Origin: a virus
Length of the DNA: 64,000 nucleotides
Virus record (IMG/VR): IMGVR_UViG_3300030419_005344
Span: 5,712-69,711 of that record
Strand: one strand, 5' to 3'
Below, piece after piece: positions 34,108-61,380 of this stretch; positions within the stretch are counted from its first letter, which is position 1; each line of letters starts with the position of its first letter. A program made the position numbers and the translations under genes. Under the pieces are notes generated by a model, which did not search any database, had not been told where the DNA came from, and saw only the letters and a list, made by a program, of their open reading frames with translations.

Positions 34108-34308
34108 TCATTCCTCCCCAGAATCCTCAAAATCTTCTCTCATTTTTACAAGAGGTGCATTCATGACCACCAAACCGTGCTCCGAGAGCCGGAACTTAAA
34201 ACCCTTAAGCACAGGAACAATGTCTGATTGTTCCAGTAACGACTTTTGCAGCGCCATCATTAGGGCGCCTAGGGCTTGGTCACTTAAGTGCATATCTTTA
34301 CTACTCAT
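34108..34308 (-). CDS. Hypothetical protein (66 aa)
   Basis: Coupled to its neighbours, with an AAGGAG SD. Confidence 0.55.
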   Translation of the reverse strand: MSSKDMHLSDQALGALMMALQKSLLEQSDIVPVLKGFKFRLSEHGLVVMNAPLVKMREDFEDSGEE

Positions 34309-35143
34309 TTTTATCTCCTTTTGTTACGGCTCCTTCTATTTTGAGCCAGTCTTTTTCTTCTCTAACTTCTAAGTTTTTTTGCCACGCTGCCTGTAGCATT
34401 GTTGGCTTTATGTTGTTTGTATGGCAGTAATACATTAACGCATTTAAGTCTTTTGCAAAACATTTTCCACCAAAGCCATGATACCCATCAGGGCCCGGGA
34501 CTTTAAGATGGCTTCGGCCTATTCTGCTATCTAATAAAGCCAAAGCTGTAACAGTGTCATAATCTGCCCCGATAGCGTTGCAAATTTGCTTCATTTCGTT
34601 AGCAAAAGACACCTTAGTGGCTAGAAAGGTGTTAATGTAATACTTAACTATTTCGGCTGTTTCCCAATCTGTTGTTTCATATTGCTTATCAGGTAACATC
34701 CAGCGCATCATGTCAACGCACTTTTGTGTATCGTTTTCTTGCCCACCAAATATCACGCGATTACACAACCTAAAGTCTTCTACCGAATTTGCCTCGGTTA
34801 AGAACTCTGGGCTGAACACTATCCTCATCTCTGGGTGTCGTTCGTTAATCACCCTACACGTCCCGGGCACGACGGTTGATTTTAAAATTACCAAATTATT
34901 ATTGTAACTTTGGTTAATTTTGTCCATAACATCAAAAACAATAGACAAATCAGGGTGACCATCCAAGTGCATAGGGGTGGGTACAGCGACAAAAACATAT
35001 TCACACTGTTCAGTGATATCCGAGATAGCTTTACAGTCTGTGAGTTCAGGGTTAGTGTCATACCGTAGTGTTTTGTAAGTAAATCTTATATTTTGATATA
35101 TGGCGTTTCCTACAAAACCATTTCCAATTATGCCTACTTTCAT
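34301..35143 (-). CDS. ugd: UDP-glucose/GDP-mannose dehydrogenase family (short form)
   Basis: GxGxxG, 'FVAVPTP', 'KSTVVPGT', 'SPEFL', 'GFGGKCF.KD' with catalytic Cys. The C-terminal UDP-binding domain is absent. Confidence 0.8.
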   Translation of the reverse strand: MKVGIIGNGFVGNAIYQNIRFTYKTLRYDTNPELTDCKAISDITEQCEYVFVAVPTPMHLDGHPDLSIVFDVMDKINQSYNNNLVILKSTVVPGTCRVINERHPEMRIVFSPEFLTEANSVEDFRLCNRVIFGGQENDTQKCVDMMRWMLPDKQYETTDWETAEIVKYYINTFLATKVSFANEMKQICNAIGADYDTVTALALLDSRIGRSHLKVPGPDGYHGFGGKCFAKDLNALMYYCHTNNIKPTMLQAAWQKNLEVREEKDWLKIEGAVTKGDKNE

Positions 35144-35958
35144 TTAAAACACCTAGTTAATCCTTCTAAAATTCCAATCTTAGCAGTCCAGCCTAGCTTA
35201 CGAAGCTTACTGGTGTCGGCCTCTGTGTGTCGTACATCTCCGGGCCGGACGGGTGCATGGTCCCAAGACACTTTTAGATTTTCATTAACAAATTCTTTAA
35301 TATTGTTTAGAGATACAACATCTCCGGAGCCCACATCGTATACGGCGCCGTTAAAATTTTTGTTGTGTGATGCGCAAAACAAGTTTGCTGACACCACATC
35401 ATCAACATGAATATAGTCTCTTGTTTGTTCGCCGTCGCCGTCGATGCGAAGTGGCCTATCTTGTCGGATCATTTCCATCCAAGCAGATATAACTGTTGAG
35501 TACGCCCCTCCAAAAGGCTGGTCTTCCGAGTAAACATTAAAATATCTTAAACAAACTGTGTCCAAGCCGTACAACTGGGAATACAATTTACATTCCATCT
35601 CACTCATGAGTTTATGGAGGCCGTAAGGTGAGGTAGGTCCTTGGCCGTCACCAGTTGTTGCGGCCGATGATGAAAACACGAACTTTTTGACACCGTGCGA
35701 GCGACACCAATTAAGCAAAACAGAGGTAGCATAAACATTGTGTTTTAGAGTATAGCATGGGTTTTCAACGGAATATTCAACTCTTGGAAGTGCAGCCAAA
35801 TGAAACACCGTGTCTACCTCGATGTCATCAGGTAAGCAATCAATTACATCTTGACCATCTTTAAGGTCAATGCCTAATTTTGGTCCTACAAGAGATTCAA
35901 ATAAGTGTGACCCAATAAAACCTTTGTGTCCTGTGACAAGATACTTATACTTTTTCAT
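35140..35958 (-). CDS. NAD-dependent epimerase/dehydratase
   Basis: 'TGHKGFIG', 'HLAA', 'SPYGLHK' (YxxxK), 'LRYFNVY', '[12 protein letters not shown]'. Confidence 0.9.
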
Positions 35959-36919
35959 TCTGCACCTTTTTTAAGTCTGCCTCGTACATCATTCCTGCAA
36001 GCTCTTTAAATCTTACCTTTGGAGTCCACCCTAGCTTGCCTTGGGCCTTCCTTGCGTCTCCTAACAACAACGGCACCTCGTGGGGCCTAAACAGCCGCTC
36101 GTCTTGCTCAACATACTCGCCTATATCAAGCTCTGCGCATTCGAACACAACCTCTAAAAACTCTCTCACTGTGTGTGTCTCGCCAGTAGCGATAACATAA
36201 TCATCAGGCTTAGGCTGTTGAAGCATAAGCCACATCATTTCAACGTAATCACCGGCAAATCCCCAATCGCGTTTGGCATCTAGGTTGCCAAGATAAAGTT
36301 TATCTTGCAGCCCAAGTTTAATCCGGGCAGCGGCCATGGTAATCTTGCGTGTAACAAAAGTCTCGCCCCTACGAGGGGACTCGTGGTTGAATAAGATTCC
36401 ACACGATGCGTGCAACCCGTATGACTCTCTGTAGTTCCTTACAAGGTGATGCGCGTACACTTTGGCGCAAGCGTATGGTGAAGCCGGCTGAAGTGCTGTG
36501 GACTCGTCCTGCGGGCTCTCAGGGTTATCTCCAAACATCTCTGATGATGAGGCCTGATAAAAGCGTGCGTTTGGAACGATATGTCGCATTGCTTCTAAAA
36601 GTCGCAGTGTACCCATCACAATTGTGTCTGTTGTACTCTCTGGGACCTCAAAGGAAACGCGAACGTGTGATTGTGCGGCAAGATTATATATTTCGTCGGG
36701 CTTGTACTCGTTTAACAATCTCCACATACATCCAGTATCATTCAGTTCAAAATACCGCATGCTAAAATTTGGATGGTCAAAAATGTGATCTAACCGTTCT
36801 GTACAGATGGTGGATGTTCTTCGCTTAAGTCCAACAACCTTGTAGCCCTTGTCTAGCAGTAACTCTGCTAAATAAGAACCATCTTGTCCTGTTACACCAG
36901 TTATCATTGCCGTTTTCAA
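35945..36919 (-). CDS. gmd: GDP-mannose 4,6-dehydratase
   Basis: '[17 protein letters not shown]', 'NLAAQSHV', '[16 protein letters not shown]', 'RDWG'. TTG start at 36919 (GAGGTG SD, TTGA overlap with fcl). Confidence 0.95.
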
Positions 36920-37824
36920 GAGACACCTCTTATGTCCGGATACTTTAACATAACCCATTTACAAGTTTTAGTCAAGCCTTTTTCTAAAGAAGTATACCAT
37001 TTTTTATCCCAACCCAAATCTAAAAGCTTCTGGTTAGAGCTTGGCTTTCTGTGTTGCCCGGACGGCATTTGTGTATTCCATCGTATTTCTCCGTCATATT
37101 TCATAATAGAACAGATCATCTCTACAACTTCTTTAATAGAATATTCCTCGGTGTTTCCAATATTAATTGGTTCTGGCTCATCATAACTTTCTAATAGAAA
37201 CATTAGTATTTTGACAATATCTTCAGAATATGTAAACTCTCTTAACGGAGAGCCGTCGCCCCAGCACTCCACAAAAGGTTTGTTGTTTAGCTTTGCTTCC
37301 CATACTTTTCTTATAATCGCTGGTATGACATGGCTGTTTTCTAAATCGAAGTTGTCGTTTTCTCCGTAAAGATTGTTTGGTATAGCTGTGATAAAGTTGC
37401 ACCCATATTGTTGCCTGTACGCACGGGACATAACGTCAACCATCCTCTTAGAATAAGCATAACCAAAATTAGATGAATGAGGAGGCCCAAGATGTAATTG
37501 ATCTTCGGTTAAAGGATATGTGACATACGGAGAGTCTGGATATACGCACGTTGACAGAAGAGAAACAACTTTTTTAGCGCTTGAAGAATAAGCTTGGTGC
37601 AATAGTTTTTGATTAATAGTAGAATTGATGGTATAGAATTGACACACTTCGTCTGTATTAGCTTTAACACCTCCAACTTTAGCAGCCAGATGAACAATAT
37701 TTTTTCCTTGCATATCATAAAAATTATTATGAAATTCTTCTCTTGTAGGATAATCAGCATCAGGTATTAATGTTTTAAAAGCTGAACCAACCATTCCTGT
37801 CCCACCAGTGACTAATAAACCCAT
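36916..37824 (-). CDS. fcl: GDP-L-fucose synthase
   Basis: 'TGGTGMVG', 'HLAAKVGG', 'STCVYP', 'YAYSKR', '[15 protein letters not shown]', '[10 protein letters not shown]'. Adjacent to gmd. Confidence 0.93.
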
Positions 37825-37825
37825 A

Positions 37826-38539
37826 TTACCATGAGTGGCTTCGAACCACTATCCTTTCATTGCCGGGTTGTACATTTCCACCCTTGTGAATCACATCAGA
37901 ATCAAATATTATTAGAGTGCCTGCTGGACCTGTAATTGGCACTAGCTCGTACTCAATCTCAGGATAATGATTCTGGGGTTCATCCCAAAAATCACAACGG
38001 CCGGCATCTCCATAAAAACGACCGAATCTCCACTTTGTAATATTATTAGGGTTTGGTTCCATAGATCTTAATCTCTTTGTCATGTGGTGAGATCCCGGTG
38101 AGACCGTAAGAGGCCCACACTGTTCACACACGTCCGTGACGTTTAAGAAAAATTTAAATCTCTGCAACCTATCAAAATGAGCCCATCCTTGCGGGCCTAC
38201 CCCTTGATCACTTATATAATCATATGTAGAAAAAATATCTCTTTGAAATCCGACATTTAATTGTTGGTACCCTGTGGCAACCTCATACATCCACTCAGAG
38301 TTTCTAAAAAATGATGTTACTGTAGGTGTCTCAGTCAAATCCCAACTGCTTGGATTGTCACTCCGGATAGCTTTGCCGAATGAATAATTTGCCTCTCTTT
38401 TTTCAAAGATAGACAAAAGTTCTGATTTTATTAGGGACACATCTTTAGTATAACCTGCTATCCTAGCTACACCATATTTGTTTAGTGTCTGGACCACTTC
38501 GTGTGGATGAGCCTGTGTATTTAGATCAAATCTTTCCAA
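37826..38539 (-). CDS. PhyH-like 2OG-Fe(II) dioxygenase
   Basis: HxD 'WAHFD', 'GPLTVSPGSH', 'GPAGTLIIFDSDVIHKG', 'R.V'. Confidence 0.75.
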   Translation of the reverse strand: MERFDLNTQAHPHEVVQTLNKYGVARIAGYTKDVSLIKSELLSIFEKREANYSFGKAIRSDNPSSWDLTETPTVTSFFRNSEWMYEVATGYQQLNVGFQRDIFSTYDYISDQGVGPQGWAHFDRLQRFKFFLNVTDVCEQCGPLTVSPGSHHMTKRLRSMEPNPNNITKWRFGRFYGDAGRCDFWDEPQNHYPEIEYELVPITGPAGTLIIFDSDVIHKGGNVQPGNERIVVRSHSW

Positions 38540-38541: not shown

Positions 38542-39498
38542 CTATGCTCCTACTAAACTCATGGCCAGTTGTAGTTCTCTCTGGTCATTTGAAATTGGTA
38601 ACTGATTAATAATATCACTGCCTATTGGAATGCTTGCACTTTTCATATATTGCTTAAAGCTTGATATAATAATTCTGTGTGAGTCCTCTACAGGAATTTG
38701 TTTTTCTTTTTCTAAGTATTTTGATATGGGGTTAGAACAATTTAGTCTATTAAATATTTCATCAAATAAAGTGTCCTTCTCTAATACAGGATGAACTTTT
38801 GGGTCTGTAAGAGTAACTGCACCAGATAAATCTCTGTGCAATCTTATCAGGGAAATACAATCTAAATTTGTTTTTCTATACCCCTCACATGTCGCGACCA
38901 AAGTAAATATCTTATCCCAAAATCTGATTGGGGCTAGGCTAGCTGGACTATTAACGCTGTCGCAGATTATATCGATTGCCTTGGCCCAAACAGACATGCG
39001 TGTTAAAATATGTGGATTAACATACACAGATGGAACAAAAACACTTTCTATTCTGCGTAAAGTGTCTTCTTCGTTTTTATCTTTTTTAATCCACTCCGGG
39101 GTACCGTATTGCCAGTTTATCATGCTGGGAGACAACATTTGGATTACTTGTCCTTGAGCACATGAATATTCTGGGTTTTCAATCAGAAACTTTTCTGCTA
39201 CTTTTATACCTGTTGGGGACGCAAAATCATCATCATTATTCCAATATATAAATGAATATTCATTATATAATTTACAAATATCCTTCCACATTTCGTAAAA
39301 GTGAAATTGTGAAGCAGGATAGTGGTGAACCTCTTTAATTTTATCGTGTTTTGGTGCCGGGGACCAAAAATCTTCAGATTGATCCACTAGAATCACGTCT
39401 AAATCTTCCGAGTAGGACTCTAAAAATTTTAATTGTTTACTGAGTGTATGTTTTCTGTTGAAGAAAGTTATAACCAGCAGAGTTTTATTGTTTTTCAT
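38542..39498 (-). CDS. GT-A glycosyltransferase (GT2 / TIGR00180-like)
   Basis: 'ITFFNRKH.L', 'ILVDQS', 'NDDDF', 'FL..NPEYSCAQG'. Confidence 0.65.
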   Translation of the reverse strand: MKNNKTLLVITFFNRKHTLSKQLKFLESYSEDLDVILVDQSEDFWSPAPKHDKIKEVHHYPASQFHFYEMWKDICKLYNEYSFIYWNNDDDFASPTGIKVAEKFLIENPEYSCAQGQVIQMLSPSMINWQYGTPEWIKKDKNEEDTLRRIESVFVPSVYVNPHILTRMSVWAKAIDIICDSVNSPASLAPIRFWDKIFTLVATCEGYRKTNLDCISLIRLHRDLSGAVTLTDPKVHPVLEKDTLFDEIFNRLNCSNPISKYLEKEKQIPVEDSHRIIISSFKQYMKSASIPIGSDIINQLPISNDQRELQLAMSLVGA

Positions 39499-40411
39499 AA
39501 TATCTGATCGTATCTAAAATGGCCGCTTTAAAATTAGTTGGTTTTATATTAGGACATAAGTCCAAGAATTTATTAGCATTGATTGAGTATCTAAAATCAT
39601 GGCCCGGTCGGTCTTCAACAAATTCTACATTTGAATCAAACTCTTTATCCAATAGTTCTAGAATTTCGGAAATAACTTCAAGATTTTCTTTTTCATTACT
39701 TAGCGATAAGTTATATGTCTCGTTATTTTTACCCTTCTCAAAGACCTCTAGAATACACTTGGCACAGTCTTTAACATAGAACCAGTCCCTAATATTCCTA
39801 CCGTCTCCATAGATTGGAACCTTTTGTTCGTCCGACAGTCTTTTCAATATTTTTGGAATAAGCTTTTCCTCGTCCTGTCTCGGCCCAAAATTATTACTCA
39901 TTCGAACTATTTTATATTTTACACCATGTGTAGTTTGAAAAGATTTGACTAGATGCTCTGCGGCTGTTTTTGTTGCAGAATATGGATTTCTGGGGCTAAG
40001 GGTATCGGTTTCGCTGAATGAGTCCTCAACGGTAGAACCATAAACTTCATCCGTAGAGATTTGAAACATGTTACAGCCTGTCTTGCGGCATGCCTCAAGA
40101 AGCGAATATACGCCATTAATGTTGGAATGTAAAAAGTTTTCAGCCGAATCGATTGAGCGATCAACGTGAGATTCCGCTGCAAAATTAATAACCCAATCAA
40201 TGTTATGCTTATTAATGATATCAACCATCTTATCATGATTAGCAATGTCACATTTGTAAAACTTTATTTTATTAATAAATGTGCTCATGTTTTTTTCTTT
40301 TCCAGCATATGTCATTTTATCAACACCAACAATTGTATGTCCTTGTTCTAGGAATACATCAACCGCATGACTGCCAATAAACCCTGCACAACCAGTTATC
40401 ATTAAATTCAT
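39485..40411 (-). CDS. rfbB: dTDP-glucose 4,6-dehydratase
   Basis: 'TGCAGFIGS', 'DKMTYAG', 'NFAAESHVDRSI', 'STDEVYG', 'PYSATK', 'DRPGHDFRY'. Start taken at 40411. Confidence 0.93.
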   Translation of the reverse strand: MNLMITGCAGFIGSHAVDVFLEQGHTIVGVDKMTYAGKEKNMSTFINKIKFYKCDIANHDKMVDIINKHNIDWVINFAAESHVDRSIDSAENFLHSNINGVYSLLEACRKTGCNMFQISTDEVYGSTVEDSFSETDTLSPRNPYSATKTAAEHLVKSFQTTHGVKYKIVRMSNNFGPRQDEEKLIPKILKRLSDEQKVPIYGDGRNIRDWFYVKDCAKCILEVFEKGKNNETYNLSLSNEKENLEVISEILELLDKEFDSNVEFVEDRPGHDFRYSINANKFLDLCPNIKPTNFKAAILDTIRYYEKQ

Positions 40412-40412
40412 T

Positions 40413-41228
40413 TTATTTCCCATAGTTAGTAACACACCAAGTTAAAGCATCGCTGGCTGGTCTTGGATTAAAACCTGTTGATTTTAGTTTTTTAATATCT
40501 AAAATTGTATTTACTCTCTTGTTGACCAAGCCACTTAAAAATTCTTCATATGTGGCTGTGCTAACTTCTAGTGACGGCTTAATATTCTCTTTTATAGCTA
40601 ATGCAATATCATGTGGTGTTAGTGTGCCCTCGTTAGCGCAATTATATATACCCGTGGCATTTATGTTAATTAAGTGCTGCATCATGAGAGCAAAATCTTC
40701 AATACAAGTAACTGAGTTGGCTTCTTCTATTGCTGCTATCTTATCCATCTTCACAAATTTAGTGATCATATTTGTAGGGTGTACTTTTTTAGTGATCATT
40801 TGTCGAGGTCTTAAAATTAGGTAATTTTCATATCCATAATTAATAATGAAATCATCTGCCCACATTTTTGTTCTTGTGTACCACACTTTAGGATCTGGTT
40901 CGGCTTGTTCGTCGCGTGGAACTTGATTACCATCAAACAAACAACCACTACTTATGTGAACATATTTTATTTTCTGATTGAAACAACATGTTAGCAGGTT
41001 AATAGCACCCTTTGTATTAACGTTATAAGAGTGCATTTTATCTTCTTCACATTTTTCTAGATTTGAAATAGCTGCACAATTTATAACTACATCGGGATTT
41101 TCCCTATTTATAATTTCGCAAACTTTGTCACTATTTGTGACATCACACTGTGTTCTAGGAATTATCGTGCTATCTTCATCTTCAATGATTGATGCGACTT
41201 TTCCAGAACCAAAGATTAATTTTTTCAT
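40413..41228 (-). CDS. RmlD-fold sugar reductase, resembling the bifunctional 3,5-epimerase/4-reductase (NRS/ER)
   Basis: 'PDVVINCAA', 'HISSGCLF', 'YTRTK', 'LRPR', 'NMITK', 'NSVT', 'TGIYN..NEG'. Lies between rfbA and rfbB with no rmlC present. Confidence 0.7.
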   Translation of the reverse strand: MKKLIFGSGKVASIIEDEDSTIIPRTQCDVTNSDKVCEIINRENPDVVINCAAISNLEKCEEDKMHSYNVNTKGAINLLTCCFNQKIKYVHISSGCLFDGNQVPRDEQAEPDPKVWYTRTKMWADDFIINYGYENYLILRPRQMITKKVHPTNMITKFVKMDKIAAIEEANSVTCIEDFALMMQHLININATGIYNCANEGTLTPHDIALAIKENIKPSLEVSTATYEEFLSGLVNKRVNTILDIKKLKSTGFNPRPASDALTWCVTNYGK

Positions 41229-41230
41229 TT

Positions 41231-41950
41231 TTACTCCAATATACCAGATGTGATAAGACGATTGGCTTTATAATAAGACTTTAAAGTTCCTGCATCGGTC
41301 CACCACCCATCCATTATCTTATAAAACATTTGATTATTTTCGATATATGCATTGTTGATGTCTGTTATTTCATATTCCCCTCTAGCAGACGGAACTAGTG
41401 TGCTAATAATATCAAAAACTTTGTTGTCATACATGTATATGCCTGTAATAGCATAATCACTTTTTGGAAGATCTGGCTTTTCTTCGATTTGTGAAACTCT
41501 GTCTCCGTCAAAAATCGCAACACCGTACCTTTCCGGATCCGGCACTTTCTTTAGTAATAACTGACAGGCACGGCCATCTTGTATAAAATCACTGATATGA
41601 TCAGTTAAGCAGTCTTCGAAAATGTTATCTCCTAGAATTACAATACATGTGTCAGAGCCAACAAAATTTTTACACAAAGATAAGGCGCCACCGATCCCAT
41701 CAGGCTTATCTTGGACTCGAAAAGTAAAATTACAGTTGTACTCTGAACCGGAGCCTAACAAGGAGATCATATCTCCCATATGCTCCGTGCCTGTGATAAT
41801 CATAATGTCAGTAACACTAGCTTCCACAAGCTTTTTAACGTTATGAATAATCATTGGCTGATCCCCAATCGGGAGAAGATGTTTGTTTGTAACTTTTGTT
41901 AAAGGGTACAGTCTAGAACCTGTCCCTCCTGCTAATATAATGCCTTTCAT
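41231..41950 (-). CDS. rfbA: Glucose-1-phosphate thymidylyltransferase (short RmlA/SpsI type)
   Basis: 'GIILAGGTGSRLYPLTK..NKHLLPI', 'LGDN', 'EEKP', 'SARGEYEITD', 'WTDAGT'. Confidence 0.93.
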   Translation of the reverse strand: MKGIILAGGTGSRLYPLTKVTNKHLLPIGDQPMIIHNVKKLVEASVTDIMIITGTEHMGDMISLLGSGSEYNCNFTFRVQDKPDGIGGALSLCKNFVGSDTCIVILGDNIFEDCLTDHISDFIQDGRACQLLLKKVPDPERYGVAIFDGDRVSQIEEKPDLPKSDYAITGIYMYDNKVFDIISTLVPSARGEYEITDINNAYIENNQMFYKIMDGWWTDAGTLKSYYKANRLITSGILE

Positions 41951-42633
41951 TTTGTTTCCTCGTCAAGTTTAGCCCAATAGTGTCCCATGGTCATTTTTGT
42001 GCTGTTACTAGTGCTGGTTCTATCATTATCAACGTATTTCGATAACGGCATCACCCTAAAGTCGATACTTACTCTTGTCTTTCCGGTCTTATTTACCTTG
42101 TTTCCATGTTTCCAGTTGGCACCACTCCAAACATAATAACCACCGACGGCCGAGTTGAGTGGCACGTAATCCTCAAGCCCCTCTTGTGTCTCTGTCCATA
42201 CAGTGCTTGTATCATGAGCGTCAGTTAATGGCAAATATATATTAATTTCTTCAGAAGAATGGTTGTAATCTTTATCTCTATGCCACTCTGCAACACCAAG
42301 ATTGTTTGGCACTTGTGTTCTAAAAGTTGGAATTTTTTGGTATATAATTGGCTCACTAAACAAAGGTTGAATATTTTCTTGAATAAAAAGTTTATAAGTG
42401 CTATAAAAAATACTGTCTTTAGGCATATCATAAAATGTCTTATGAAAAATTGTAGACTGATCAGTCTCAAAAGTTAAAACATCAAAATCGCTGGCGTACA
42501 CATTGTGTATTTGATTTAATTCTTTCGTTTTAAACCAGCTTGCTACTTCGCTAGACAAATTGTATTTTTTAACATCATACTCAAAAAACATTGGTTTTGT
42601 TAAGCCATAATCTAAATTTATTTTACCACCCAT
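41947..42633 (-). CDS. StrG-like 2OG-Fe(II) oxygenase-fold protein
   Basis: 'YQKIPTFR...EWHRD..YNH...EINIYLPLT...HGN..NKTGKTRVSIDFR' (HxD...H...RxS). Confidence 0.7.
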   Translation of the reverse strand: MGGKINLDYGLTKPMFFEYDVKKYNLSSEVASWFKTKELNQIHNVYASDFDVLTFETDQSTIFHKTFYDMPKDSIFYSTYKLFIQENIQPLFSEPIIYQKIPTFRTQVPNNLGVAEWHRDKDYNHSSEEINIYLPLTDAHDTSTVWTETQEGLEDYVPLNSAVGGYYVWSGANWKHGNKVNKTGKTRVSIDFRVMPLSKYVDNDRTSTSNSTKMTMGHYWAKLDEETK

Positions 42634-43780
42634 TTTTCATGCACTCCACTATGTATTGTCTCTCTTCGTCAGAGATCCACCAACCAGCAGGAATACAGAT
42701 CATCTCATTAACCAAGCTATCTAGGTTTTTTAGTTCTGTTTTATATTGCTGAACGCAAGAATGCTTGTCATTTCTTTCATGTACTCGGGAAACCATGATA
42801 TTGCAGCTTTTCATTTTTGACATAAAATCATCCTGACGTTCTACTTTCAAAGTATAAATCCAAAAAGATGACTCGCAATCAGATGATCTATCAAGCAGTG
42901 TTACACCCTTGATACCTTCAAGGTTTTTATCATAAAATGCTGCATTTTCTTTATGGCGACTTATTATCTTTCCTACATGTTTCAAGTTTGACAAACCAAT
43001 GGTTGCGTTTATATCATTCATATGAAATTTGAATCCCCACTCAGGGATGTCATCCTCGCATCTGAAGTCTTTCCTGTTTGACTCCCTATCAATCCCATAC
43101 CACCTTAATAGCTTTGCTCTTTTATATTCTTCCTCATTAGGCAATATCAGAGCGCCGCCGTCAACAGATGTCAAGTGCTTAATCGCTTGAAAACTATAAC
43201 ATGCATAATTTCCGTGATTACCTAAATTAAGTCCTTTGTATTTAGATCCAAAACCATGAGCGCAATCTTCTATAATAAGAGGGGCAAAACCATACAACTC
43301 AATTGATTTTTGTTGAATTTTCTTGAGTCTATCTAAATCAACCGGGTAACCTCCCCAGTGAACTACAATTATAATTTTAGTTTTTTCTGATATTTTGTTC
43401 TCTAGATCATCTAGATCTAGATTACAAGTTTGAGGATCTGAGTCTACCCATTTTAAATTTAGGCCATTTGCCAAAGCGGGCCAGTTAGTTGCTGTACAAG
43501 TTAAAGCGGACGTTAGAACCTCATCCCCGTCTTGCACTCCGGGCCAGTTTTCTGATCTTGGTTTCCTCCTAATCATAGATACTGCAAGATGTAATGCAGA
43601 TGTAGCAGAGTTCAAAGCCACTAAATTGTTGCAACCCAAGTAATCTGAAAGTGCTTTTTCAAATTCTTTTACTTTTGGTCCTTCACCAATGTACCCTGAC
43701 AGTAGAACCTTTTCCACCTCTTTTGGGGTATCAGGGTGCATACTTACCTTAAACAAAGGTATTAAATCGTTATTTGACAT
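42623..43780 (-). CDS. DegT/DnrJ/EryC1/StrS PLP-dependent sugar aminotransferase
   Basis: 'NSATSALHLA', 'VHWGG', 'IEDCAH', 'SFQAIKHLTS.DGG'. Confidence 0.92.
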   Translation of the reverse strand: MSNNDLIPLFKVSMHPDTPKEVEKVLLSGYIGEGPKVKEFEKALSDYLGCNNLVALNSATSALHLAVSMIRRKPRSENWPGVQDGDEVLTSALTCTATNWPALANGLNLKWVDSDPQTCNLDLDDLENKISEKTKIIIVVHWGGYPVDLDRLKKIQQKSIELYGFAPLIIEDCAHGFGSKYKGLNLGNHGNYACYSFQAIKHLTSVDGGALILPNEEEYKRAKLLRWYGIDRESNRKDFRCEDDIPEWGFKFHMNDINATIGLSNLKHVGKIISRHKENAAFYDKNLEGIKGVTLLDRSSDCESSFWIYTLKVERQDDFMSKMKSCNIMVSRVHERNDKHSCVQQYKTELKNLDSLVNEMICIPAGWWISDEERQYIVECMKNGW

Positions 43781-43781
43781 T

Positions 43782-44339
43782 TTAATCCTCTCGTCTATGT
43801 GTGACTAACGTGATCGATGGATGGTTTTCTAACACCAAAATATTAAACCTGTTGTTGCTGTTTTCTGCTTTAATAACTGGTTGGATAAGAGATTTGTTAA
43901 ATTTAGACATCCAATAAACATTATCTCTTGCGAATGAACCGCCTTCTAAAACACAAACACCATTTGGTGAAAGCTTTTGCATATAATGTTCAAAGGTGTG
44001 TTTATAAACATCTCCATTATTTGCTATATCAATATGTAAAATGTCAATTTGACCATCTTTAAATTCGTTTTCAGATCCAAAAAAGTCACCTCTTCTTATT
44101 GAAACATTCTTATGTTTTTCAAATTTTTCAACAATGTCTGTGTAGCTTGCTGCGTTATATGGAAATTGTTCGAATATATCATAAGCAAGTATTTCGGTGT
44201 CTGGCGAGCACACATCCACCCAAGTGGTTAATGAGTATGCTTCCAGAATCCCAAACTCTACTACTTTTTTAGGACGCACAACATGGGCCAGTGCTCGGAA
44301 TACATTATCATAATTGTTTTCTTTATAAGATGATTTCAT
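43782..44339 (-). CDS. Class I SAM-dependent (sugar O-)methyltransferase
   Basis: 'PKKVVEFGILEAYS', 'AYDIF', 'IDILHIDI', 'LSPNGVCVLEG'. Confidence 0.7.
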   Translation of the reverse strand: MKSSYKENNYDNVFRALAHVVRPKKVVEFGILEAYSLTTWVDVCSPDTEILAYDIFEQFPYNAASYTDIVEKFEKHKNVSIRRGDFFGSENEFKDGQIDILHIDIANNGDVYKHTFEHYMQKLSPNGVCVLEGGSFARDNVYWMSKFNKSLIQPVIKAENSNNRFNILVLENHPSITLVTHRRED

Positions 44340-54343: not shown

Positions 54344-54372
54344 ATTATAGCACCAAAAGTAAGCCTTGTCAA
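54344..54372 (-). promoter_or_regulatory. Perfect sigma70 consensus promoter with extended -10
   Basis: Minus strand reads TTGACA-AGGCTTACTTTTGGTGC-TATAAT (17-nt spacer, TGn extension) in the gap upstream of neuB. Confidence 0.9.
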
Positions 54373-54373
54373 A

Positions 54374-55018: not shown

Positions 55019-55068
55019 GCGTTTTGCATTCCTTTATTAGCTTTTAGTTTTGTAACTTGAAAATATTT

Positions 55069-55878: not shown

Positions 55879-56705
55879 TATAGCCTTTTATATTTATCTA
55901 TTAAAATTTTAGAATTACCTTGAAACTGCAAATTGTGAAGCCTTACTTTCTTATCGTGCCTTAGATTGTATCCATACGGCTTATTATCTATAAATTCTAT
56001 CTCTTTTACACCATTAGAAAATTTATATTCATCATCGTAATAGTTCGCTGGATTGTTTATACTGTGGTCGAAACTTGTGCCATCCGGTAGTAGGTTGGTA
56101 ATTATCATGGCCTTGTTTCTTCTAGTAAAGTGCCACAACGCTGTCATGTCACACACACCACCGGGTAGATTATTATTTTTGTGATAATTCCACTTTTCCA
56201 AAAGCTTTCGAAATTCAAATGAATCATTGTACATTTCTATTAAATAATTACAAAACTTATCTAACATGCCCAACGACCAATATGATACTTCACCAGTAGC
56301 AGCTTGTCTAAAATATGGTTGTTTTTTGGGGATAGCCAAAGCTAGATTTGGTTTTCCAATTGCACTATAAACATCAGACAGATTAGAAAATATTAAATTG
56401 TCTGAGTCTCCGTAAAATATATCATCACACTTCATCATTTTGGCAGCATTCCTAACTGCAATCCAGCGAATAAAACACCATTCTTCAAATTTTTGACCTC
56501 CGGTGTGCATATGTTTATACAACTTTAGAAACTTTTCTATGTCTTGGTAACACTCGTTGATGTGAATATGCCTTACGTTATTAAGATTACCAAGATGTTC
56601 ATTGTCGTTATCACCAATAAGCACAACGTCATTTTTCCTTGAAGCTTGTTCAATTGTGGTCTTTAGGTAGGGTTGAAACCCGGCGTGGAAGAAAAATGTC
56701 TTCAT
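55878..56705 (-). CDS. Putative GT-A fold glycosyltransferase
   Basis: 'E.WCFIRW', DxD 'GDSDNL', 'VCDMT', 'LQFQG..K'. Located within the GT run. Confidence 0.55.
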   Translation of the reverse strand: MKTFFFHAGFQPYLKTTIEQASRKNDVVLIGDNDNEHLGNLNNVRHIHINECYQDIEKFLKLYKHMHTGGQKFEEWCFIRWIAVRNAAKMMKCDDIFYGDSDNLIFSNLSDVYSAIGKPNLALAIPKKQPYFRQAATGEVSYWSLGMLDKFCNYLIEMYNDSFEFRKLLEKWNYHKNNNLPGGVCDMTALWHFTRRNKAMIITNLLPDGTSFDHSINNPANYYDDEYKFSNGVKEIEFIDNKPYGYNLRHDKKVRLHNLQFQGNSKILIDKYKRL

Positions 56706-57322
56706 CTTGTTAAAGTAACCTCAGCTAGTTTTTTATATTTTGATTTTTCATACATTTCGACAAAACCAAATGATTTAATAAGTTCAATGCATCTAATTGT
56801 GTCTTCTATTGTCTTACCCGAACAAAAATGATGAAATTCAACACAAATCTGCCTAACAGATTCCGGTATGTATTTTAAGTTTTCTATGACACTGTACTCT
56901 GAGCCCTCTATATCCATCTTAATGACAGAAATATTATCATATGTCTTAAACAGAGTAGGCAAATCAATTGTTTCTGCTAGGTGATGTTCATATTTTGAGA
57001 CTGAATTGTGATCGGGCAATTCTGACTCCGACACATGATCTGGATTTGTGTTACAGAACAACCTTATGATATCATCATTTGCGTGTGTAAGGGCTTTTTT
57101 TAGCAAATAAAAATTGTGTAAATTTGTTTGAGATTCAATAAACTTGTGACTTTTTGGGGTTGGGTCTATGCCAACCACGTTGCAAGAAAGCCTTTCTATA
57201 AGTTCCAAGTCAAAACTAATATCTTCACCAACGCCAGCAGATATTATGGTTGAGCCGCGAGGAATAAGGTCCAGATTTACAAGCCAACCTCCATAATCAG
57301 TGCCAAGCAATTCAATTGCCAT
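56702..57322 (-). CDS. FkbM-family methyltransferase
   Basis: 'YGGW', 'SAGVGEDISFD', 'DPTP', 'KMDIEGSEY', 'QICVEFH'. Confidence 0.85.
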   Translation of the reverse strand: MAIELLGTDYGGWLVNLDLIPRGSTIISAGVGEDISFDLELIERLSCNVVGIDPTPKSHKFIESQTNLHNFYLLKKALTHANDDIIRLFCNTNPDHVSESELPDHNSVSKYEHHLAETIDLPTLFKTYDNISVIKMDIEGSEYSVIENLKYIPESVRQICVEFHHFCSGKTIEDTIRCIELIKSFGFVEMYEKSKYKKLAEVTLTR

Positions 57323-58127
57323 TCAAAAGCTCCAACAAAATTTTATAATTTTTGTTTTCAGTTTGTAAAAAAAGTGCCTTTATTTTGTCCACCAAAAATT
57401 GTCCAAAATTTTCATACTCTAACTCTCGGCTTGTGTGAACATGAAAGTTAACTGCTGGCCTGTTACCAAACCAAACTCTATCATCCTTAACGTGCAACTT
57501 GTCTAGCCTGCTTTTTGTAGAGTGATTGTTAAACCTCCACCATCCTATGTTATAGTTGATTGGCAGATTTAAAGAAACATAATTTCTTTGAACGAACTCC
57601 AGCGGCTGCTGTTCAAAATAAAAACCATACTTTTTGTAATCTACTGACAACTGATGCCATGTATCAAGAAAATGTTTATTTTTTATGTGAAACATCCCAC
57701 CGTTATACAAGCCGTGTTGAGCTTCAACCTGCCAGTTGTTTGTCATGTGTTGGCATATTGCAGCGTCGATATTTTTATTGTTGAACAACTCAAGCACCTC
57801 ATTTTCCAGAGGGTTAACAAACACCATATCAGAGTCTAAAAATAATACCTGCCCATACTCTTCAAGTGACTTATAACAAGCGTCAAACTTAGTCATCATC
57901 ACTTTCATCCAATTATCTTTTTTAACTTCGTCGTTAATATTATGGTCACAATCATCAGTATCTATAACGTTTAGGCAAGTTGTGTTTTTTAAATTATAAA
58001 ATTTATCATACGCAACTTTGTCACATGATAAAAACCAATGACACTTGTGATATTGTTCAAAGCTAGTTTTTAACAAAATAAATTCTGATATAGTTTTTTG
58101 AGTCACAACTGACGCTACTGGTATCAT
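57312..58127 (-). CDS. Nucleotide-diphospho-sugar transferase (GT77/GT8-like GT-A)
   Basis: 'K...C...L....VLFLDSDMVF', 'YNGGMF', 'FEQQ.L', 'YNIGWW', 'FHVH'. Confidence 0.65.
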   Translation of the reverse strand: MIPVASVVTQKTISEFILLKTSFEQYHKCHWFLSCDKVAYDKFYNLKNTTCLNVIDTDDCDHNINDEVKKDNWMKVMMTKFDACYKSLEEYGQVLFLDSDMVFVNPLENEVLELFNNKNIDAAICQHMTNNWQVEAQHGLYNGGMFHIKNKHFLDTWHQLSVDYKKYGFYFEQQPLEFVQRNYVSLNLPINYNIGWWRFNNHSTKSRLDKLHVKDDRVWFGNRPAVNFHVHTSRELEYENFGQFLVDKIKALFLQTENKNYKILLELLNGN

Positions 58128-60115
58128 AAAATTACCGAAGACTGTTGCTCTGTCGTAGAGTTTCTATACATTTTAAAAATTTCTCTTTCTTCGTCTTCTT
58201 TCCAGCTAAAGTTTTCTGGGTTTGTTGAAATTCCAGTAGGATTAAAATAGTATAAGCCAAGAATCGAGCTAATCTTCTTAAACCTGCTTCCCTGACTTGC
58301 TCCTCTTAACCACATCTCCCAGTCACCAGCAGACCTGTACTTCGCATCAAACTCACCATATCTATCGTGATAACTTTTACGCCACATCGGTGAAGCGTGA
58401 GGCATGTTTGACATCTTAAGATTATCTAAACTAAACTGTGGGAAATTATAGCGACGACCTTCCGAACTATTGTTTTCAAATGTTTCATTAGGCTTGTCTG
58501 TGATTGCCATGTCAGCATACACTAGGTCTACGTCATCGTTCGTATAAAGCTCTCTAGCGTGTCTCTCAAGCGAGTTGATTGCCTTTCGGTCATCTAGGTT
58601 AGCGTTGGTAAGATACTCACCAGAAGACATCTCAACGCCCATATTCCACACTCCGTAAATACCGGGGTCTTCTTCAAGGCGCTTGTAAACAATATTGTCT
58701 GGATACTTTTCTAGGTATTCTTGAATAACTTCTTCTTCGCTACCGGGCGAGGCAGCGTTTATCAAAATAAGTTCACACTTATCTTCAAAGATAGTCTGTC
58801 TTGTAATATCTTCCAAGAACGGTCTAATATATTCGTCTCCATCATAAACAGAGGTAATGATGGAAATCTTTGGTAGTTCTTCTACCGAAACTGTAAGCGC
58901 TGGGTCCGGAGTGTTAATCATATAGGAAAGATTCTTGTGCTTCTTATCCCAACTAAACTCTTCACGCACCCAACTTTGTAGATACTCAGCCTTTGCTAGC
59001 CACTTGTCGTAGTGTTTTCTAACCTGCCGCAAGCGCATCTTAAACGAACCTTCGGTTGGGTAGCACCACATGGTATCCTTCTCTAGTACACCGGGCCATA
59101 CAGCGTGCTGCTGAATTGGACCGAGTGTGTAGTCCACCTCGGCAAAGTAAGCCTTACGCTTGTTCTTGTTTTTCTTAGAAGTTGTTTTGAACGGAGCATA
59201 AAGAAAATCAGCCTGCCCAGACCAGCCGGGAGCAATAATTGGAAGCCCACTATAAGCGGCCTCAAAGAGTGGCAGGCCGAAGCCTTCACCATGTGTCAAC
59301 GAAACTAAAGCTTTAATCTTTGGGTGATTGTATAGCGAGTGAATTTCAGCCTCGGACATGTCTCCGTGAAGCAGATAAATCTTACACTTACGCTCTTCAA
59401 GGCTTGGAATAGCCTGTGATACAACTTGCTCAATGTATTCGCGGTCTACAACAGAGTTGTTCTTCAGACTTGTCTTAACAACAAGGCCAACTTCTTGGTC
59501 GTGATTTTCCTCGACAAACCACTTGATAAGGTTGTCCATGTTCTTGCGAGGACCCCACTGTGAAATAGCTAGGTAGTTAAAATCATAATCAAGGTCTAGC
59601 GACACATCAATTGTCTCGTGCTCTTTTACGGGGTATCCTGCTACCTCAACCGGCACATCACATTTAAGATGCATTGGTTGACCAGTCTGCTTGTTTTGGC
59701 CATGATATTCTGTCATGACAAAGCCATTCTTGGAGTGCTCGGAAATGGTAATTACCTTGTCCATAGCGTTGCACATCTCAAGCCAAGTTGGAGAAACCTT
59801 GTTGGTTTCAATCCCGGCGGTCACCCCAATGTTAATCGGTGCCATTCTCTGCCACTCATTGGGGATAGTAACCTGTACTGAGATGTCGTAGGGCAGCTTT
59901 TGATGTAAGTGCTGAGCGCCGGCTGCGACCTTAGCATCAATCCACCTTCTTTCTTCGTCATTAATGGCTAGCCAGCCAGTTTCGCCCCAGCCAGTCGGAA
60001 GAATATGAATGTCTAACTCTGCTTCCTGCAAACGAAGAGCGCGCAGCACAAAACGTGTGTGCTCGCCGTATCCTGACTGTGATAGGGCAGGCCCTCTAAC
60101 TAATACTTTTTTCAC
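58124..60115 (-). CDS. Bifunctional glycosyltransferase: GT4 (N-terminal) plus GT2 (C-terminal)
   Basis: 'SGYG', 'RKN', 'GEGFGLPLFEAA', followed by 'ISIITSVY...NANLDD...DWEMWLR'. Confidence 0.85.
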   Translation of the reverse strand: MKKVLVRGPALSQSGYGEHTRFVLRALRLQEAELDIHILPTGWGETGWLAINDEERRWIDAKVAAGAQHLHQKLPYDISVQVTIPNEWQRMAPINIGVTAGIETNKVSPTWLEMCNAMDKVITISEHSKNGFVMTEYHGQNKQTGQPMHLKCDVPVEVAGYPVKEHETIDVSLDLDYDFNYLAISQWGPRKNMDNLIKWFVEENHDQEVGLVVKTSLKNNSVVDREYIEQVVSQAIPSLEERKCKIYLLHGDMSEAEIHSLYNHPKIKALVSLTHGEGFGLPLFEAAYSGLPIIAPGWSGQADFLYAPFKTTSKKNKNKRKAYFAEVDYTLGPIQQHAVWPGVLEKDTMWCYPTEGSFKMRLRQVRKHYDKWLAKAEYLQSWVREEFSWDKKHKNLSYMINTPDPALTVSVEELPKISIITSVYDGDEYIRPFLEDITRQTIFEDKCELILINAASPGSEEEVIQEYLEKYPDNIVYKRLEEDPGIYGVWNMGVEMSSGEYLTNANLDDRKAINSLERHARELYTNDDVDLVYADMAITDKPNETFENNSSEGRRYNFPQFSLDNLKMSNMPHASPMWRKSYHDRYGEFDAKYRSAGDWEMWLRGASQGSRFKKISSILGLYYFNPTGISTNPENFSWKEDEEREIFKMYRNSTTEQQSSVIL

Positions 60116-61380
60116 ACTACCTCCTTAAGCTGCCAAGCCTTGTAGCCTTTTCTAGTATCCCACGAACCAAACCTTTCAGTAATGTCCTCGATAAGGTTAA
60201 GCCAGTTCTTCTGGAAATCATCGTAGTTGTAATTATCTCTAACATGCTTCATGCCGAGCATGCCCAATCGTTCCCTTTCTTCAACAGGCATGTTGTAAAA
60301 GGTTCTCATGGCCTCTAGGAACTGTTCCTCACTAATTCTATCCTCGTATATGTATGGAACGGTCTGTGAGCCGATAAGGGCCTTAGCGAACGGCTCAATA
60401 CCAATGCCAAACCACTGCTCACCATCTGTGACCTGCTCTTGTAGGCCGCCGGTCATGTTAACAATGATAGGCGTTCCACAGGAAAGAGACTCAAGGGTGG
60501 CGAGGCCAAAGCCCTCGGCGTCTGAAATATTGATTGTGCAGTCCGCCATGTTGTACATCATGGATAGTGCTTCAGGGGGAAGCTTCTTGGTTGACAGCAC
60601 AACACGGCCGTCAGTCATACCCATGTCTTCTATCATTTGGTTAAGGTCTTGGCCATTGGGGTCCTTGGGGTCTGTATGCAGAATTAAACACACATTTTCA
60701 GGACCAACCTCTTCGGCAAACTTGTTAAACCAGTGCAAAAGCGTACCAGAGTGCTTGCGGCGAGCATTACGATTATTCCAAAAGAACACTGTTCGGCCTG
60801 CATGCTCTGGAAAACTTTCCTCGATGAACTTAGCAACGTGCTCTTGGTCAACCTTGCGGAAAACCTTATCGTTAACAGCATGAGGAATGTAGTAATTTTC
60901 TACCTCAGGTGCCACCTTGTCTACGATGTCATGCGTAACCTTTGAAATAGACGCGATAACATCAGTAGAACGATACCACTTGGCGTTATACTTTGGTGGA
61001 GGGTAGTTATCCCAAACATGATAGTACACCATTGGAATAAGCGGACGGATTTCGTTTTCAATCTGCCACAACCAAGGGTAGAAGCGCGGGTCCGTCATAA
61101 ACCAAAGCACATCTGGCTTCTCGGTCCAGAGCACAGAGCGAACAGACTCTGCCGAGCCGTAGCCATCTACAGGGTAAACAACCCAATCCTTCTCACCCCA
61201 TCTGTCATCTGTGATGTATTGCGGGTCGTAGTTCGGGTGCTTAATGGCGCCGCCAAAACAAATGAAACGATACTTCCCGGTAAGAATCAAAGTTTCAATA
61301 AAGTTTCGTGTCTGTGTTCCAACGCCCGATGGTGCCAACGGATGGTCGGCTAATACTAAAATAGTTTTCTTCTCGCTCAT
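60112..61380 (-). CDS. GT4-family glycosyltransferase
   Basis: 'DHPLAPSGVGTQ', 'NRNARRK', 'YNMAD...SDAEGFGLATLESL..GTPII..TGGL'. Confidence 0.88.
   Translation of the reverse strand: MSEKKTILVLADHPLAPSGVGTQTRNFIETLILTGKYRFICFGGAIKHPNYDPQYITDDRWGEKDWVVYPVDGYGSAESVRSVLWTEKPDVLWFMTDPRFYPWLWQIENEIRPLIPMVYYHVWDNYPPPKYNAKWYRSTDVIASISKVTHDIVDKVAPEVENYYIPHAVNDKVFRKVDQEHVAKFIEESFPEHAGRTVFFWNNRNARRKHSGTLLHWFNKFAEEVGPENVCLILHTDPKDPNGQDLNQMIEDMGMTDGRVVLSTKKLPPEALSMMYNMADCTINISDAEGFGLATLESLSCGTPIIVNMTGGLQEQVTDGEQWFGIGIEPFAKALIGSQTVPYIYEDRISEEQFLEAMRTFYNMPVEERERLGMLGMKHVRDNYNYDDFQKNWLNLIEDITERFGSWDTRKGYKAWQLKEVV

Follow-up and report, generated by a model that had tools for sequence, protein, structure and literature searches.

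We analyzed a 64,000-nucleotide stretch of viral DNA (hereafter, the window), which comprises bases 5712-69711 of one 69,711-bp viral contig, IMGVR_UViG_3300030419_005344. Thirty-three consecutive minus-strand open reading frames (ORFs), most of which overlap or abut, span positions 34301-61380 of the window. They bring nucleotide-sugar pathway genes and several glycosyltransferases (GTs), recognized by Pfam and NCBIfam, together in one co-oriented cluster. Two of the GTs, GT4-A and GT4-B, form a core that is found in at least 583 viral contigs, and the remaining ~24.7 kb of the cluster is the fill of a hypervariable slot. We put at about even chances the reading that the cluster encodes a two-layer cytoplasmic system, which glycosylates the proteins of the virion. 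The evidence comprises the conservation of the GT4 pair, a sequence motif that is enriched in the outer virion proteins of the phages that carry the pair, and the soluble character of all the encoded enzymes.

The contig is phage DNA and it is not chimeric, because it is collinear with the 203,859-bp genome of a complete relative with terminal repeats (G001) in the region between PhoH and the tail genes, which includes the island, and because the flanks of the island are common to 76-82 of the 82 loci that were compared. Since the collinearity with G001 covers both island borders, a chimera or a bacterial origin of the contig is ruled out. All real genes of the window are on the minus strand, and the DNA outside the chain of ORFs amounts to 626 nt in total. 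A blastn comparison with isolated phages gave no similarity at the DNA level, and relatives were found at the protein level only. The nearest isolates by protein sequence are the Flavobacterium phage immuto and the Microcystis phage Mel-JY01, at ~30% identity. In both, the gene order is the same as in the window, that is, a nuclease, two GTs and then more sugar genes; immuto carries a homologous GT pair and an island of ~11 genes. The source lineage is one of widespread, uncultured, marine T4-like phages. A search of viral contigs with GT4-A gave at least 583 confirmed relatives, of which the best 80 (54-85% identity) were retrieved, and all 55 proteins of the window were compared with the 82 loci by tblastn.

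This comparison divides the region into a conserved block, a slot and a conserved far border. The conserved block consists of PhoH (present in 72 of the 82 loci), two ORFs named h112 (61) and h260 (71), a PD-(D/E)XK nuclease (78), GT4-A (82) and GT4-B (76), and the identity of GT4-A and GT4-B across the loci ranges from 32 to 85%. The far border is made of a zinc-ribbon gene, an ORF with one transmembrane (TM) segment, a late sigma gene and the ORF h101, in all nine loci that reach it. Between GT4-B and the zinc-ribbon block, the loci have almost nothing in common. The slot is only 227 bp long in locus L079 and 266 bp in L075, which leaves the GT pair alone. In seven loci it measures 4.5-8.2 kb, and in 51 of 79 it is 8 kb or more with the border unreached; it has ~18.7 kb in G001 and ~24.7 kb in the window. 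Parts of the island of the window recur in other loci. L008 and L009 carry the GT29-NeuB-cupin-CMP-transferase-DHDPS-HAD set at 46-75% identity, L073 carries the GT77-like and GT47 genes, and L004 has a cupin, a short-chain dehydrogenase/reductase (SDR) and a CMP-transferase at 51-69% identity. A Pfam tally of 140 ORFs, taken at random from 542 island ORFs, counted 19 epimerases or dehydratases, 10 GT2, 7 cytidylyltransferases, 6 DegT, 5 NeuB and 5 GT1 proteins, and also methyltransferases. Synteny across related phage contigs, which a first-pass annotation of the sequence had named as a check, thus consists of the same flanks and a conserved GT4 pair around an island of variable contents. The GT pair shows the conservation of a core phage gene and persists even where there is no island, which argues for a conserved acceptor.

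GT4-A (60112..61380, minus strand) has 422 amino acids and is a predicted retaining enzyme of the GT-B fold (Pfam Glycos_transf_1, 2.5e-13). The C-terminal motif of GT4-A and GT4-B is known as E-x7-E. Its two residues in GT4-A, E289 and E297, show no variation among 28 sequences. The AF2 model of GT4-A has a pLDDT of 88.5 and a GT-B topology. The best solved relative is B736L of chlorovirus NY-2A (PDB-id 3oy2), which matches over the full length with an E-value of 5.4e-16 and is also first in Foldseek. The fold was tried as a discriminator between acceptors and dropped, since it was uninformative beyond the first rank of B736L. GT4-B (58871..60115, minus strand) is the N-terminal part, ~415 residues, of a 663-amino acid ORF at 58124-60115. 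It is homologous to gp90 of immuto and to an ORF of Mel-JY01; among 27 sequences, E277 does not vary and E285 hardly does. In 48 of 65 ORFs of relatives, GT4-B stands free at ~420 amino acids. In the window it is fused to a GT2 domain (58124..58870, minus strand; Pfam Glycos_transf_2, 3.9e-15, residues 418-577), which is where the variable part of the cluster starts.

The C-terminal partner of GT4-B is exchanged between relatives. It is a GT2 domain in the window and in ~16 of 65 relatives, and an MptE/Maf-like domain (PF01973) in L005 and L043. Because GT4-B is fused to a GT2 domain here and to an MptE/Maf-like domain in L005 and L043, the domain architecture suggests consecutive steps on a single acceptor. 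Maf proteins glycosylate flagellin. As a pointer to a protein target, a Maf-type flagellin GT was considered and dropped, since the long PF01973 proteins are GT4 fusions and do not have the Maf architecture. PF01973 domains were found in the records of 12 of 49 relatives, 6 of them above the cut-off, and none is present in the window.

The motif [ST]-[GA]-S is enriched in three virion-module proteins of the window, all encoded on the minus strand, which are candidate acceptors. Expected counts were obtained from shuffles and the mirror motif S-[GA]-T served as a control. A protein of 508 amino acids (19034-20560) has 10 sites, where ~1.8 are expected, and one of 3109 amino acids (9693-19022) has 28, where ~6.8 are expected; both adjoin the gp6-like wedge gene. 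The third, of 369 amino acids (382-1491), has 6 sites against ~1.4. It also has a sub-threshold match to Methyltransf_16, a lysine methyltransferase family (E 5.8e-4, 20.1 bits against a cut-off of 21). Together, the three proteins have 44 sites against 10.0 expected, an excess of about four-fold. The mirror motif occurs in them 5 times against 4.8 expected, and the counts of GS[ST] and [ST]SG are close to those expected. In four other large proteins of the virion, there are 3 sites against 6.5, and the 33 enzymes of the cluster have almost none. In G001, the orthologues rank first for the motif among 181 ORFs, with 40 against 11.5 and 12 against 1.7, and an 828-amino acid ORF of the same genome has 15 against 3.4. 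Seven of the ten sites of the 508-amino acid protein are kept in G001, at an overall identity of 54%.

The excess was also found in relatives without an island and in the cultured phage. The island-less relative G051 has 16 sites against 3.3 expected. In immuto, the excess lies in the proteins after the wedge gene and not in the wedge or replication proteins. It is strongest in the tail spike gp169 (locus L110, immuto_3-5A, 33615-36776), which has 53 sites against 12.0, with 1 mirror site against 4.9. Two phages for which the protein search gave no GT4-B homologue show no excess: T4 has 12 sites against 18.0 in a set of 14 proteins of the baseplate, fibres, sheath and capsid, and the giant protein after the wedge gene of P-RSM6 has 9 against 12.4. 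The motif excess co-occurs with the GT pair in the window, G001, G008, G051, G052 (weakly), G053 and immuto. This evidence is circumstantial; it is directional, specific to certain proteins, and travels with the GT pair. Because the GT4 pair is lineage-wide and kept without an island, and because the motif excess travels with it, the odds shift toward virion proteins as the acceptor. Our literature search, which was not exhaustive and did not cover supplements (Pyle et al., PMC10516641), found no description of the GT pair, the slot or the motif.

None of the cluster products resembles export machinery. Hydrophobic segments were scanned with 19-residue Kyte-Doolittle windows at a threshold of 1.6 or more, a scan that is not TMHMM, and none of the 33 ORFs has two or more segments. 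The only segment of the cluster is at the N-terminus of the product of 47577-48374, ahead of its SDR domain, and is probably due to a start codon that was called too early. As a control, Wzx and Wzy of E. coli K-12 gave 9 and 6 segments, respectively, and eight soluble rfb enzymes gave none. Thus the scan found in the cluster no initiating phosphoglycosyl transferase, flippase, polymerase, chain-length regulator, ligase or ABC permease. The claim of the first-pass annotation that no gene of the cluster has a multi-TM profile is borne out, and nothing like a flippase or polymerase appeared elsewhere either, neither in the complete relative G001 nor in the 80 related loci, where three or more segments occur in none of the 1,433 plus-strand ORFs that have 100 or more amino acids. 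G001 has a single large multi-TM ORF (130776-133862, or 10776-13862 of L091), which lies ~80 kb away from the island. Its product of 1028 amino acids has six hydrophobic segments, has no match in Pfam, and may resemble a tape-measure protein or act on membranes. This ORF and another of 313 amino acids were considered as Wzx and Wzy and rejected, since they have no Pfam match, are far from the island and are of the wrong size.

In the assembly of lipopolysaccharide (LPS) and lipooligosaccharide, soluble transferases could extend lipid-linked or core intermediates of the host, which are then exported by host machinery. The argument that a virion acceptor follows from the missing Wzx and Wzy is therefore not supported in the form in which it was first made, since host carriers and exporters could serve soluble transferases. 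Of the original proposal, that this phage builds a complex glycan in the cytoplasm on virion proteins, the phage origin and the lack of an exporter stand, and the competing idea of DNA modification has been weakened.

In the mechanism that we propose, the conserved retaining enzymes GT4-A and GT4-B, encoded downstream of the PD-(D/E)XK nuclease gene, would form the first layer and initiate a glycan on an acceptor made by the phage itself. Ser or Thr residues within [ST]-[GA]-S motifs, in the outer proteins of the baseplate and fibres, would be the likeliest sites. The second layer would be the laterally exchanged, lower-GC island, which consists of ~24.7 kb with 31 ORFs and the fused GT2 domain. 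Its predicted donors are a GDP-6-deoxyhexose and a dTDP-deoxy/amino sugar, perhaps also a uronate, together with one or two CMP-ulosonic acids that would come from a phospho-sugar (Kdn/Kdo-like) route. The chain would then be extended, capped and methylated by the GT2, GT77-like, GT47, GT29 and further transferases, and the benefit would be a variable virion 'serotype'. We infer the acceptor, the sugars, the order of the steps and the benefit from what is observed, namely the gene content, the lack of membrane proteins, the core and slot, and the motif statistics. More tentatively still, we propose a general form of this mechanism. The lineage, of at least 583 contigs, may O-glycosylate a directional sequon that has not been described before, [ST]-[GA]-S, by means of the GT4 pair, and may diversify the product through a cassette slot of 0 to ~25 kb. 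With cassettes that can bring in GT29, GT47 and GT77-like enzymes of eukaryote or giant-virus type, and ulosonic acids of the phage's own making, virion 'serotypes' comparable to bacterial O-antigens would arise entirely in the cytoplasm.

Several points weigh against this proposal. For every member of the lineage, the case is built from genes and motif statistics. The contig of the window has a CheckV completeness of 24%, and genes located elsewhere in the same phage are outside our view. The motif could be structural instead, and the controls without the GT pair are two phages only. Conservation of the sites is mixed, as the 369-amino acid protein keeps 2 of its 6 sites in G001, and in the island-less relative G052 the excess is weak (5 sites against 1.5, z 2.8). 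After 3oy2, the Foldseek matches of GT4-A are generic GT4 enzymes that act on small molecules. B736L itself is described as a GDP-Man-binding GT-B enzyme whose acceptor is not known (PMC9614988).

The strongest competitor, which we consider possible but rather unlikely, is that the cluster remodels the host envelope. Its soluble enzymes would extend lipid A-core or undecaprenyl-linked intermediates of the host, with export by the host MsbA, Wzx or WaaL, and the altered cell surface would exclude superinfecting phages or stop progeny from sticking to debris. We know of no lytic phage cluster of such a kind that has been shown to alter LPS. Host modification is nevertheless the published reading of comparable cyanophage clusters (PMC1079782, PMC7824862), which counts against a virion acceptor, and the GT2 domain of the window is 33% identical to the GT2 of P-SSM2 and P-SSM5. 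Non-initiating bacterial transferases are soluble as well (WbbK and WbbI gave no segments in our scan), and a hypervariable island would also be expected from selection by competing phages. However, the GT pair is conserved at 54-85% identity across the best 80 of at least 583 contigs and at ~30% in Flavobacterium and Microcystis phages. Such conservation across hosts with very different envelopes is unexpected for enzymes that act on host-specific glycans. Furthermore, a wzx, a wzy or an initiating transferase has been carried into none of the 80 islands, and host remodelling gives no explanation for the excess of the motif in the phages that carry the GT pair.

The promoters bear on the same question. 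Two perfect sigma70-type promoters (TTGACA-N16/17-TATAAT) read the cluster, both on the minus strand, where we estimate that ~0.007 such sites would be expected in 20 kb on both strands. One, with all 12 consensus positions, a 17-nt spacer and a TG element (54344..54372), is in the 86-nt gap before neuB, and the other (62238..62265) is upstream of the nuclease/GT run. In 17 of 76 relatives, the 300 nt ahead of the nuclease gene contain a site with at least 11 of 12 positions. Together, the two perfect promoters and these near-consensus sites show that the cluster would, in large part, also be read by unmodified host polymerase. The early transcription predicted in this way agrees with host takeover no less than with virion assembly, a further point in favour of an envelope target. 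A late-type motif, ACTATTTA, is also present upstream of the run (62528..62535, minus strand), 28 nt before an ATG at 62500. It has 7 hits in the window, all on the minus strand, of which 4 are within the 626 intergenic nt that make up 1% of the window. The hits at 2471, 8632, 22375, 22841 and 62528 are 17-28 nt ahead of five start codons, and the motif precedes the nuclease/GT run and four virion genes. In 15 of 76 relatives, it is present in the 600 nt ahead of the nuclease gene. ACTATTTA is probably a late promoter that is read with the sigma-like gene at 32842-33546. The first-pass annotation had placed the cluster directly upstream of the late sigma factor and tail genes, and this placement is correct. 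The late timing that it implies holds only in part, and late-only expression is ruled out by the two perfect sigma70-type promoters. Because early and late-type promoters are both present, the timing of expression does not discriminate between a virion and an envelope acceptor. Many sites with 11 or 12 of 12 positions were also seen on the coding strand of the relatives L003-L082. These sites, together with the perfect promoters of the window, point to a host polymerase of the canonical sigma70 type, which speaks against a host from the Bacteroidota, although Flavobacterium is the host of the nearest isolate.

It is less probable that the glycan is placed on some other cytoplasmic acceptor. 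This could be a non-structural protein of the host or phage, a small molecule, or a free oligosaccharide that is released at lysis, and the motif would then be an unrelated feature of fibres. The nearest folds after B736L, which are MshA, BshA and sucrose-phosphate synthase, do act on small acceptors. However, the 25-kb island encodes several donor pathways and ~8 transferases, which implies that a chain of several sugars is built and not a single tag, and the motif excess accompanies the GT pair in seven genomes or records and is found in neither control.

DNA hypermodification, in which the GT pair and the island would put sugars on a modified base to evade restriction, is very improbable, since genes of the thymidylate-synthase/dCMP-hydroxymethylase family (PF00303) and TGT/DpdA genes were found in none of four CheckV-complete relatives and a C5-methyltransferase (PF00145) in only one of them. 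The idea has some support, as the GT pair adjoins the PD-(D/E)XK nuclease gene and PhoH and is predicted to be transcribed early. Phage GTs derived from LPS-type enzymes place mono- to trisaccharides on 5-hydroxymethylcytosine (10.1101/2023.12.21.572611), and the a-gt of T4 likewise matches B736L by HHpred (PMC6024577). Tet_JBP (PF12851) was also absent from the four complete relatives, and from all five records searched, a weak result since the control genomes gave no match either. The oxygenases of the island match PhyH and a 2-oxoglutarate (2OG) oxygenase family of carbohydrate clusters, not TET, and the T4 enzymes AGT and BGT are absent from the 56 PDB sequence hits of GT4-A and from the Foldseek matches listed. 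The immuto phages bear on the point indirectly, as immuto_3-5A has a homologous nuclease-GT-GT cluster and its sister immuto_2-6A has a GT4-B homologue. For the DNA of immuto_2-6A, analyzed by liquid chromatography with ultraviolet detection and tandem mass spectrometry, the accessible text of the published account gives dA, dC, dT and fdPreQ1 in place of dG, and reports no sugar adduct (PMC10516641). The first-pass annotation had kept DNA modification as an alternative, which is thus weakened by the missing base-hydroxymethylation genes of the four complete relatives and by the immuto DNA.

The gene content of the cluster agrees with the earlier description in its coordinates and its kinds of genes. 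The gene number does not, as ~31 genes had been given and the ORF listing has 33. All are on the minus strand, and only two intergenic gaps exceed 10 nt (54288-54373 and 55019-55068). The modules for four activated sugars that had been claimed were recognized by Pfam and NCBIfam as GDP-fucose-type, dTDP-deoxy/amino-sugar, short Ugd-type and CMP-ulosonate modules, and two methyltransferases (Pfam) and two oxygenases were found as well. Of about eight GTs, six domains in five proteins have Pfam support, and two further ORFs are unproven leads. Apart from the named pathway enzymes, the cluster has three classical SDRs, one extended SDR and two cupins. The GC content is 0.34-0.40 in the centre of the island and 0.41-0.46 in the flanks; within the cluster, it is 0.41-0.42 at the higher-GC end (34301..37824), compared with 0.34-0.40 at 38-58 kb.

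The higher-GC end of the cluster begins with a short dehydrogenase of the Ugd family (34301-35143, 280 amino acids). This protein has the GxGxxG Rossmann motif and the region of the catalytic Cys, and lacks the C-terminal UDP-binding domain. Because it is kept in five relatives, it is probably not a pseudogene. It is followed by a GalE/TviC-like epimerase (35140-35958), GMD (35945-36958) and an Fcl-like reductase (36916-37824). GMD, which scores 462 bits with TIGR01472 against a cut-off of 415, is the sole gene of the cluster above an NCBIfam equivalog cut-off. Next are a PhyH-family dioxygenase (37826-38539, Pfam PhyH 1.2e-7) and a 318-amino acid ORF with no Pfam, PHROG or PDB match (38542-39498). 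The dTDP-deoxy/amino-sugar module (39485..44339) consists of RmlB-, RmlD- and RmlA-like genes (39485-41950), the 2OG-oxygenase-like gene of the carbohydrate-cluster family (41947-42633), which is under the NCBIfam cut-off, a DegT aminotransferase that is 56% identical to an immuto gene (42623-43780), and a methyltransferase (43782-44339). No RmlC was recognized among the cluster ORFs by Pfam or NCBIfam. The next ORF (44340-45329) is a lead for a GT2-like enzyme. It has no Pfam or PHROG match and PDB phmmer gave nothing meaningful; in the Atlas it reaches 0.99 to clusters whose members carry PF00535 at 36-87%. The ORF after it (45326-46036) has no match in Pfam, PHROGs or the PDB.

The ulosonate genes occupy the middle of the cluster. 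In order, they and their neighbours are a second cytidylyltransferase, or CMP-transferase (46014-46694), an NAD epimerase/dehydratase (46672-47577), an SDR (47577-48374), a cupin (48286-48777), an SIS-HAD fusion recognized by Pfam, NCBIfam and other sequence matches (48732-49742), a PseF-like CMP-transferase (49718-50398), an aldolase/lyase of the DHDPS family (50395-51363), a HAD-like ORF of 102 amino acids (51360-51668), a second cupin with homologues of 76-86% identity in 8 loci (51668-52048), two SDR oxidoreductases (52020-52754 and 52751-53524), and an ulosonate synthase of the NeuB family without a SAF domain (53424-54287, Pfam NeuB 3.3e-70). The last scores 254.5 bits with TIGR03569, under the cut-off of 399.65. 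In Pfam, no NeuC/Epimerase_2 match was obtained for any of the 33 ORFs at an E-value of 0.01 or better. The presence of NeuB, the SIS-HAD fusion, the HAD-like ORF and a CMP-transferase without NeuC suggests that the ulosonate is made by a phospho-sugar (Kdn/Kdo-like) route.

The remaining transferases lie between neuB and GT4-B. The first is a soluble protein of 214 amino acids in the sialyltransferase family GT29 (54374-55018, PF00777 3.2e-27, 96 bits against a cut-off of 23). Its PDB matches are ST6Gal1, ST3Gal1, ST8Sia3 and ST6GalNAc2, with E-values of 9e-14 to 5e-5, and residues 18-74, including the sialylmotif-L region, align to ST6Gal1 and ST3Gal1. Homologues were found in L008 and L009 and in the 484-kb uncultured phage LR756508, and relatives of ~210 amino acids, of marine origin, make up at least 54 metagenome clusters. 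The second is an Exostosin/GT47-like protein (55069-55878; PF03016 5.9e-13, 49.2 bits against a cut-off of 33.4; RXYLT1_C 6.6e-11) with a 53% identical homologue in L073. An ORF of 275 amino acids (55878-56705), without a Pfam or PHROG match, is a lead for a GT-A enzyme. Its nearest Atlas clusters are viral hypothetical proteins (0.98), partly from Nucleocytoviricota, with a PF03407 cluster at 0.92; D100-S101-D102 is invariant across 4 sequences, and the AF2 model, with a pLDDT of 49, is too poor for use. An FkbM-type methyltransferase (56702-57322, Methyltransf_21 2.3e-8) and a GT77-like nucleotide-diphospho-sugar transferase of family PF03407 (57312-58127, Pfam 4.7e-6, with a 64% identical homologue in L073) complete the island.

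Upstream of the cluster is the PD-(D/E)XK nuclease gene (61388..62152, minus strand, Pfam 7.3e-22), which occupies the same position in immuto and Mel-JY01, and beyond it is the PhoH gene, identified by Pfam. The 260-amino acid ORF h260 (62493-63275), just upstream of the nuclease/GT run, has as its sole match a sub-threshold Pfam ATLF-type metalloprotease domain (E 8e-4). The downstream border consists of the zinc-ribbon gene (33852-34130), the 1-TM ORF of 111 amino acids (33524-33859) and the late-sigma-like gene (32842-33546), which matches phrog_234 with an E-value of 1.6e-5, all on the minus strand. Past this gene are gp25, the gp6-like wedge gene and the giant structural proteins.

Clusters of this kind have been seen before, and the architecture is clearer here than in the published phage glycan clusters. 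The closest precedents are cyanophages. P-SSM2 carries 24 'LPS genes', which were read as a means to change the host O-antigen (Sullivan et al. 2005, PMC1079782), and jumbo cyanophages have polymorphic GT clusters (Iyer et al. 2021, PMC7824862). These published clusters, like the one in the window, belong to lytic marine T4-like phages, combine epimerases, nucleotidyltransferases, cupins, kinases and GTs in large polymorphic sets, and differ between close relatives. The 'moraphages', which have four core GT groups (PMC12619734), gave no link to the present lineage and were set aside. The present cluster belongs to a different lineage, whose nearest isolates are immuto and Mel-JY01, and it fills one fixed slot between the GT4 pair and the late-sigma block. 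Furthermore, it is accompanied by no membrane proteins in 80 loci and by a virion-protein motif that co-occurs with the GT pair. Bacterial O-antigen and capsule loci resemble it in their rml, gmd/fcl, neuB/neuA-type and DegT genes, in having several GTs, and as low-GC variable islands between conserved flanks. The cluster lacks the polytopic membrane components of Wzx/Wzy- or ABC-dependent loci in the hydropathy scan.

Soluble virus-encoded GTs without membrane export are a trait of systems that glycosylate virion proteins, and the trait is present here. To our knowledge, O-glycosylation in mycobacteriophages is the only experimentally shown virion case among tailed phages. There, phage-encoded soluble GTs, with methyltransferases, act on the structural proteins of the phage itself; the systems have 2-4 genes, use host donors and modify the C-termini of capsid and tail-tube subunits (Freeman et al. 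2023, as cited in PMC12619734). In contrast, the cluster described here has 33 genes, its own donor pathways, and candidate sites in baseplate and fibre proteins. Among giant viruses, chloroviruses glycosylate their capsid (the N-glycans of Vp54) by their own soluble enzymes, and the Megavirinae have clade-specific clusters for the glycans of their fibrils (PMC9614988). Their soluble GMD, rhamnose-type, amino-sugar and ulosonic acid pathways act with GTs and methyltransferases in the cytoplasm and vary between clades, as would be the case here. Their glycans have been solved chemically, whereas the present system is from a tailed phage of a bacterium and is known from its genes alone. The systems for DNA hypermodification (a-gt and b-gt of T4, or a methyltransferase with 5mYOX and a GT) also have soluble GTs of LPS-type ancestry and early expression, and their neighbourhoods may include structural genes. 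They require a hydroxymethylated base, for which no hydroxymethylase, TET or DpdA was found in the four complete relatives, the TET search being weak.

If the virion is the acceptor, tailed phages of Gram-negative bacteria of the sea would join the giant viruses and the mycobacteriophages as viruses that glycosylate themselves. There would be a defined sequon and a defined pair of initiating enzymes, and hundreds of exchangeable glycan cassettes would form a natural library. Such a system would bear on phage-host recognition and on the stickiness and decay of particles in the sea, and also on glyco-engineering with soluble enzymes, including a minimal GT29 of 214 amino acids. If the acceptor is the host envelope instead, the GT pair and its slot would offer a first mechanistic handle on the puzzle of the 'LPS genes' of lytic marine phages. 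The question of the acceptor is directly testable in cultured immuto, which has the GT pair, the island of ~11 genes and the tail spike with 53 sites; this spike, gp169, offers the best starting point for experiments on the candidate sequon.

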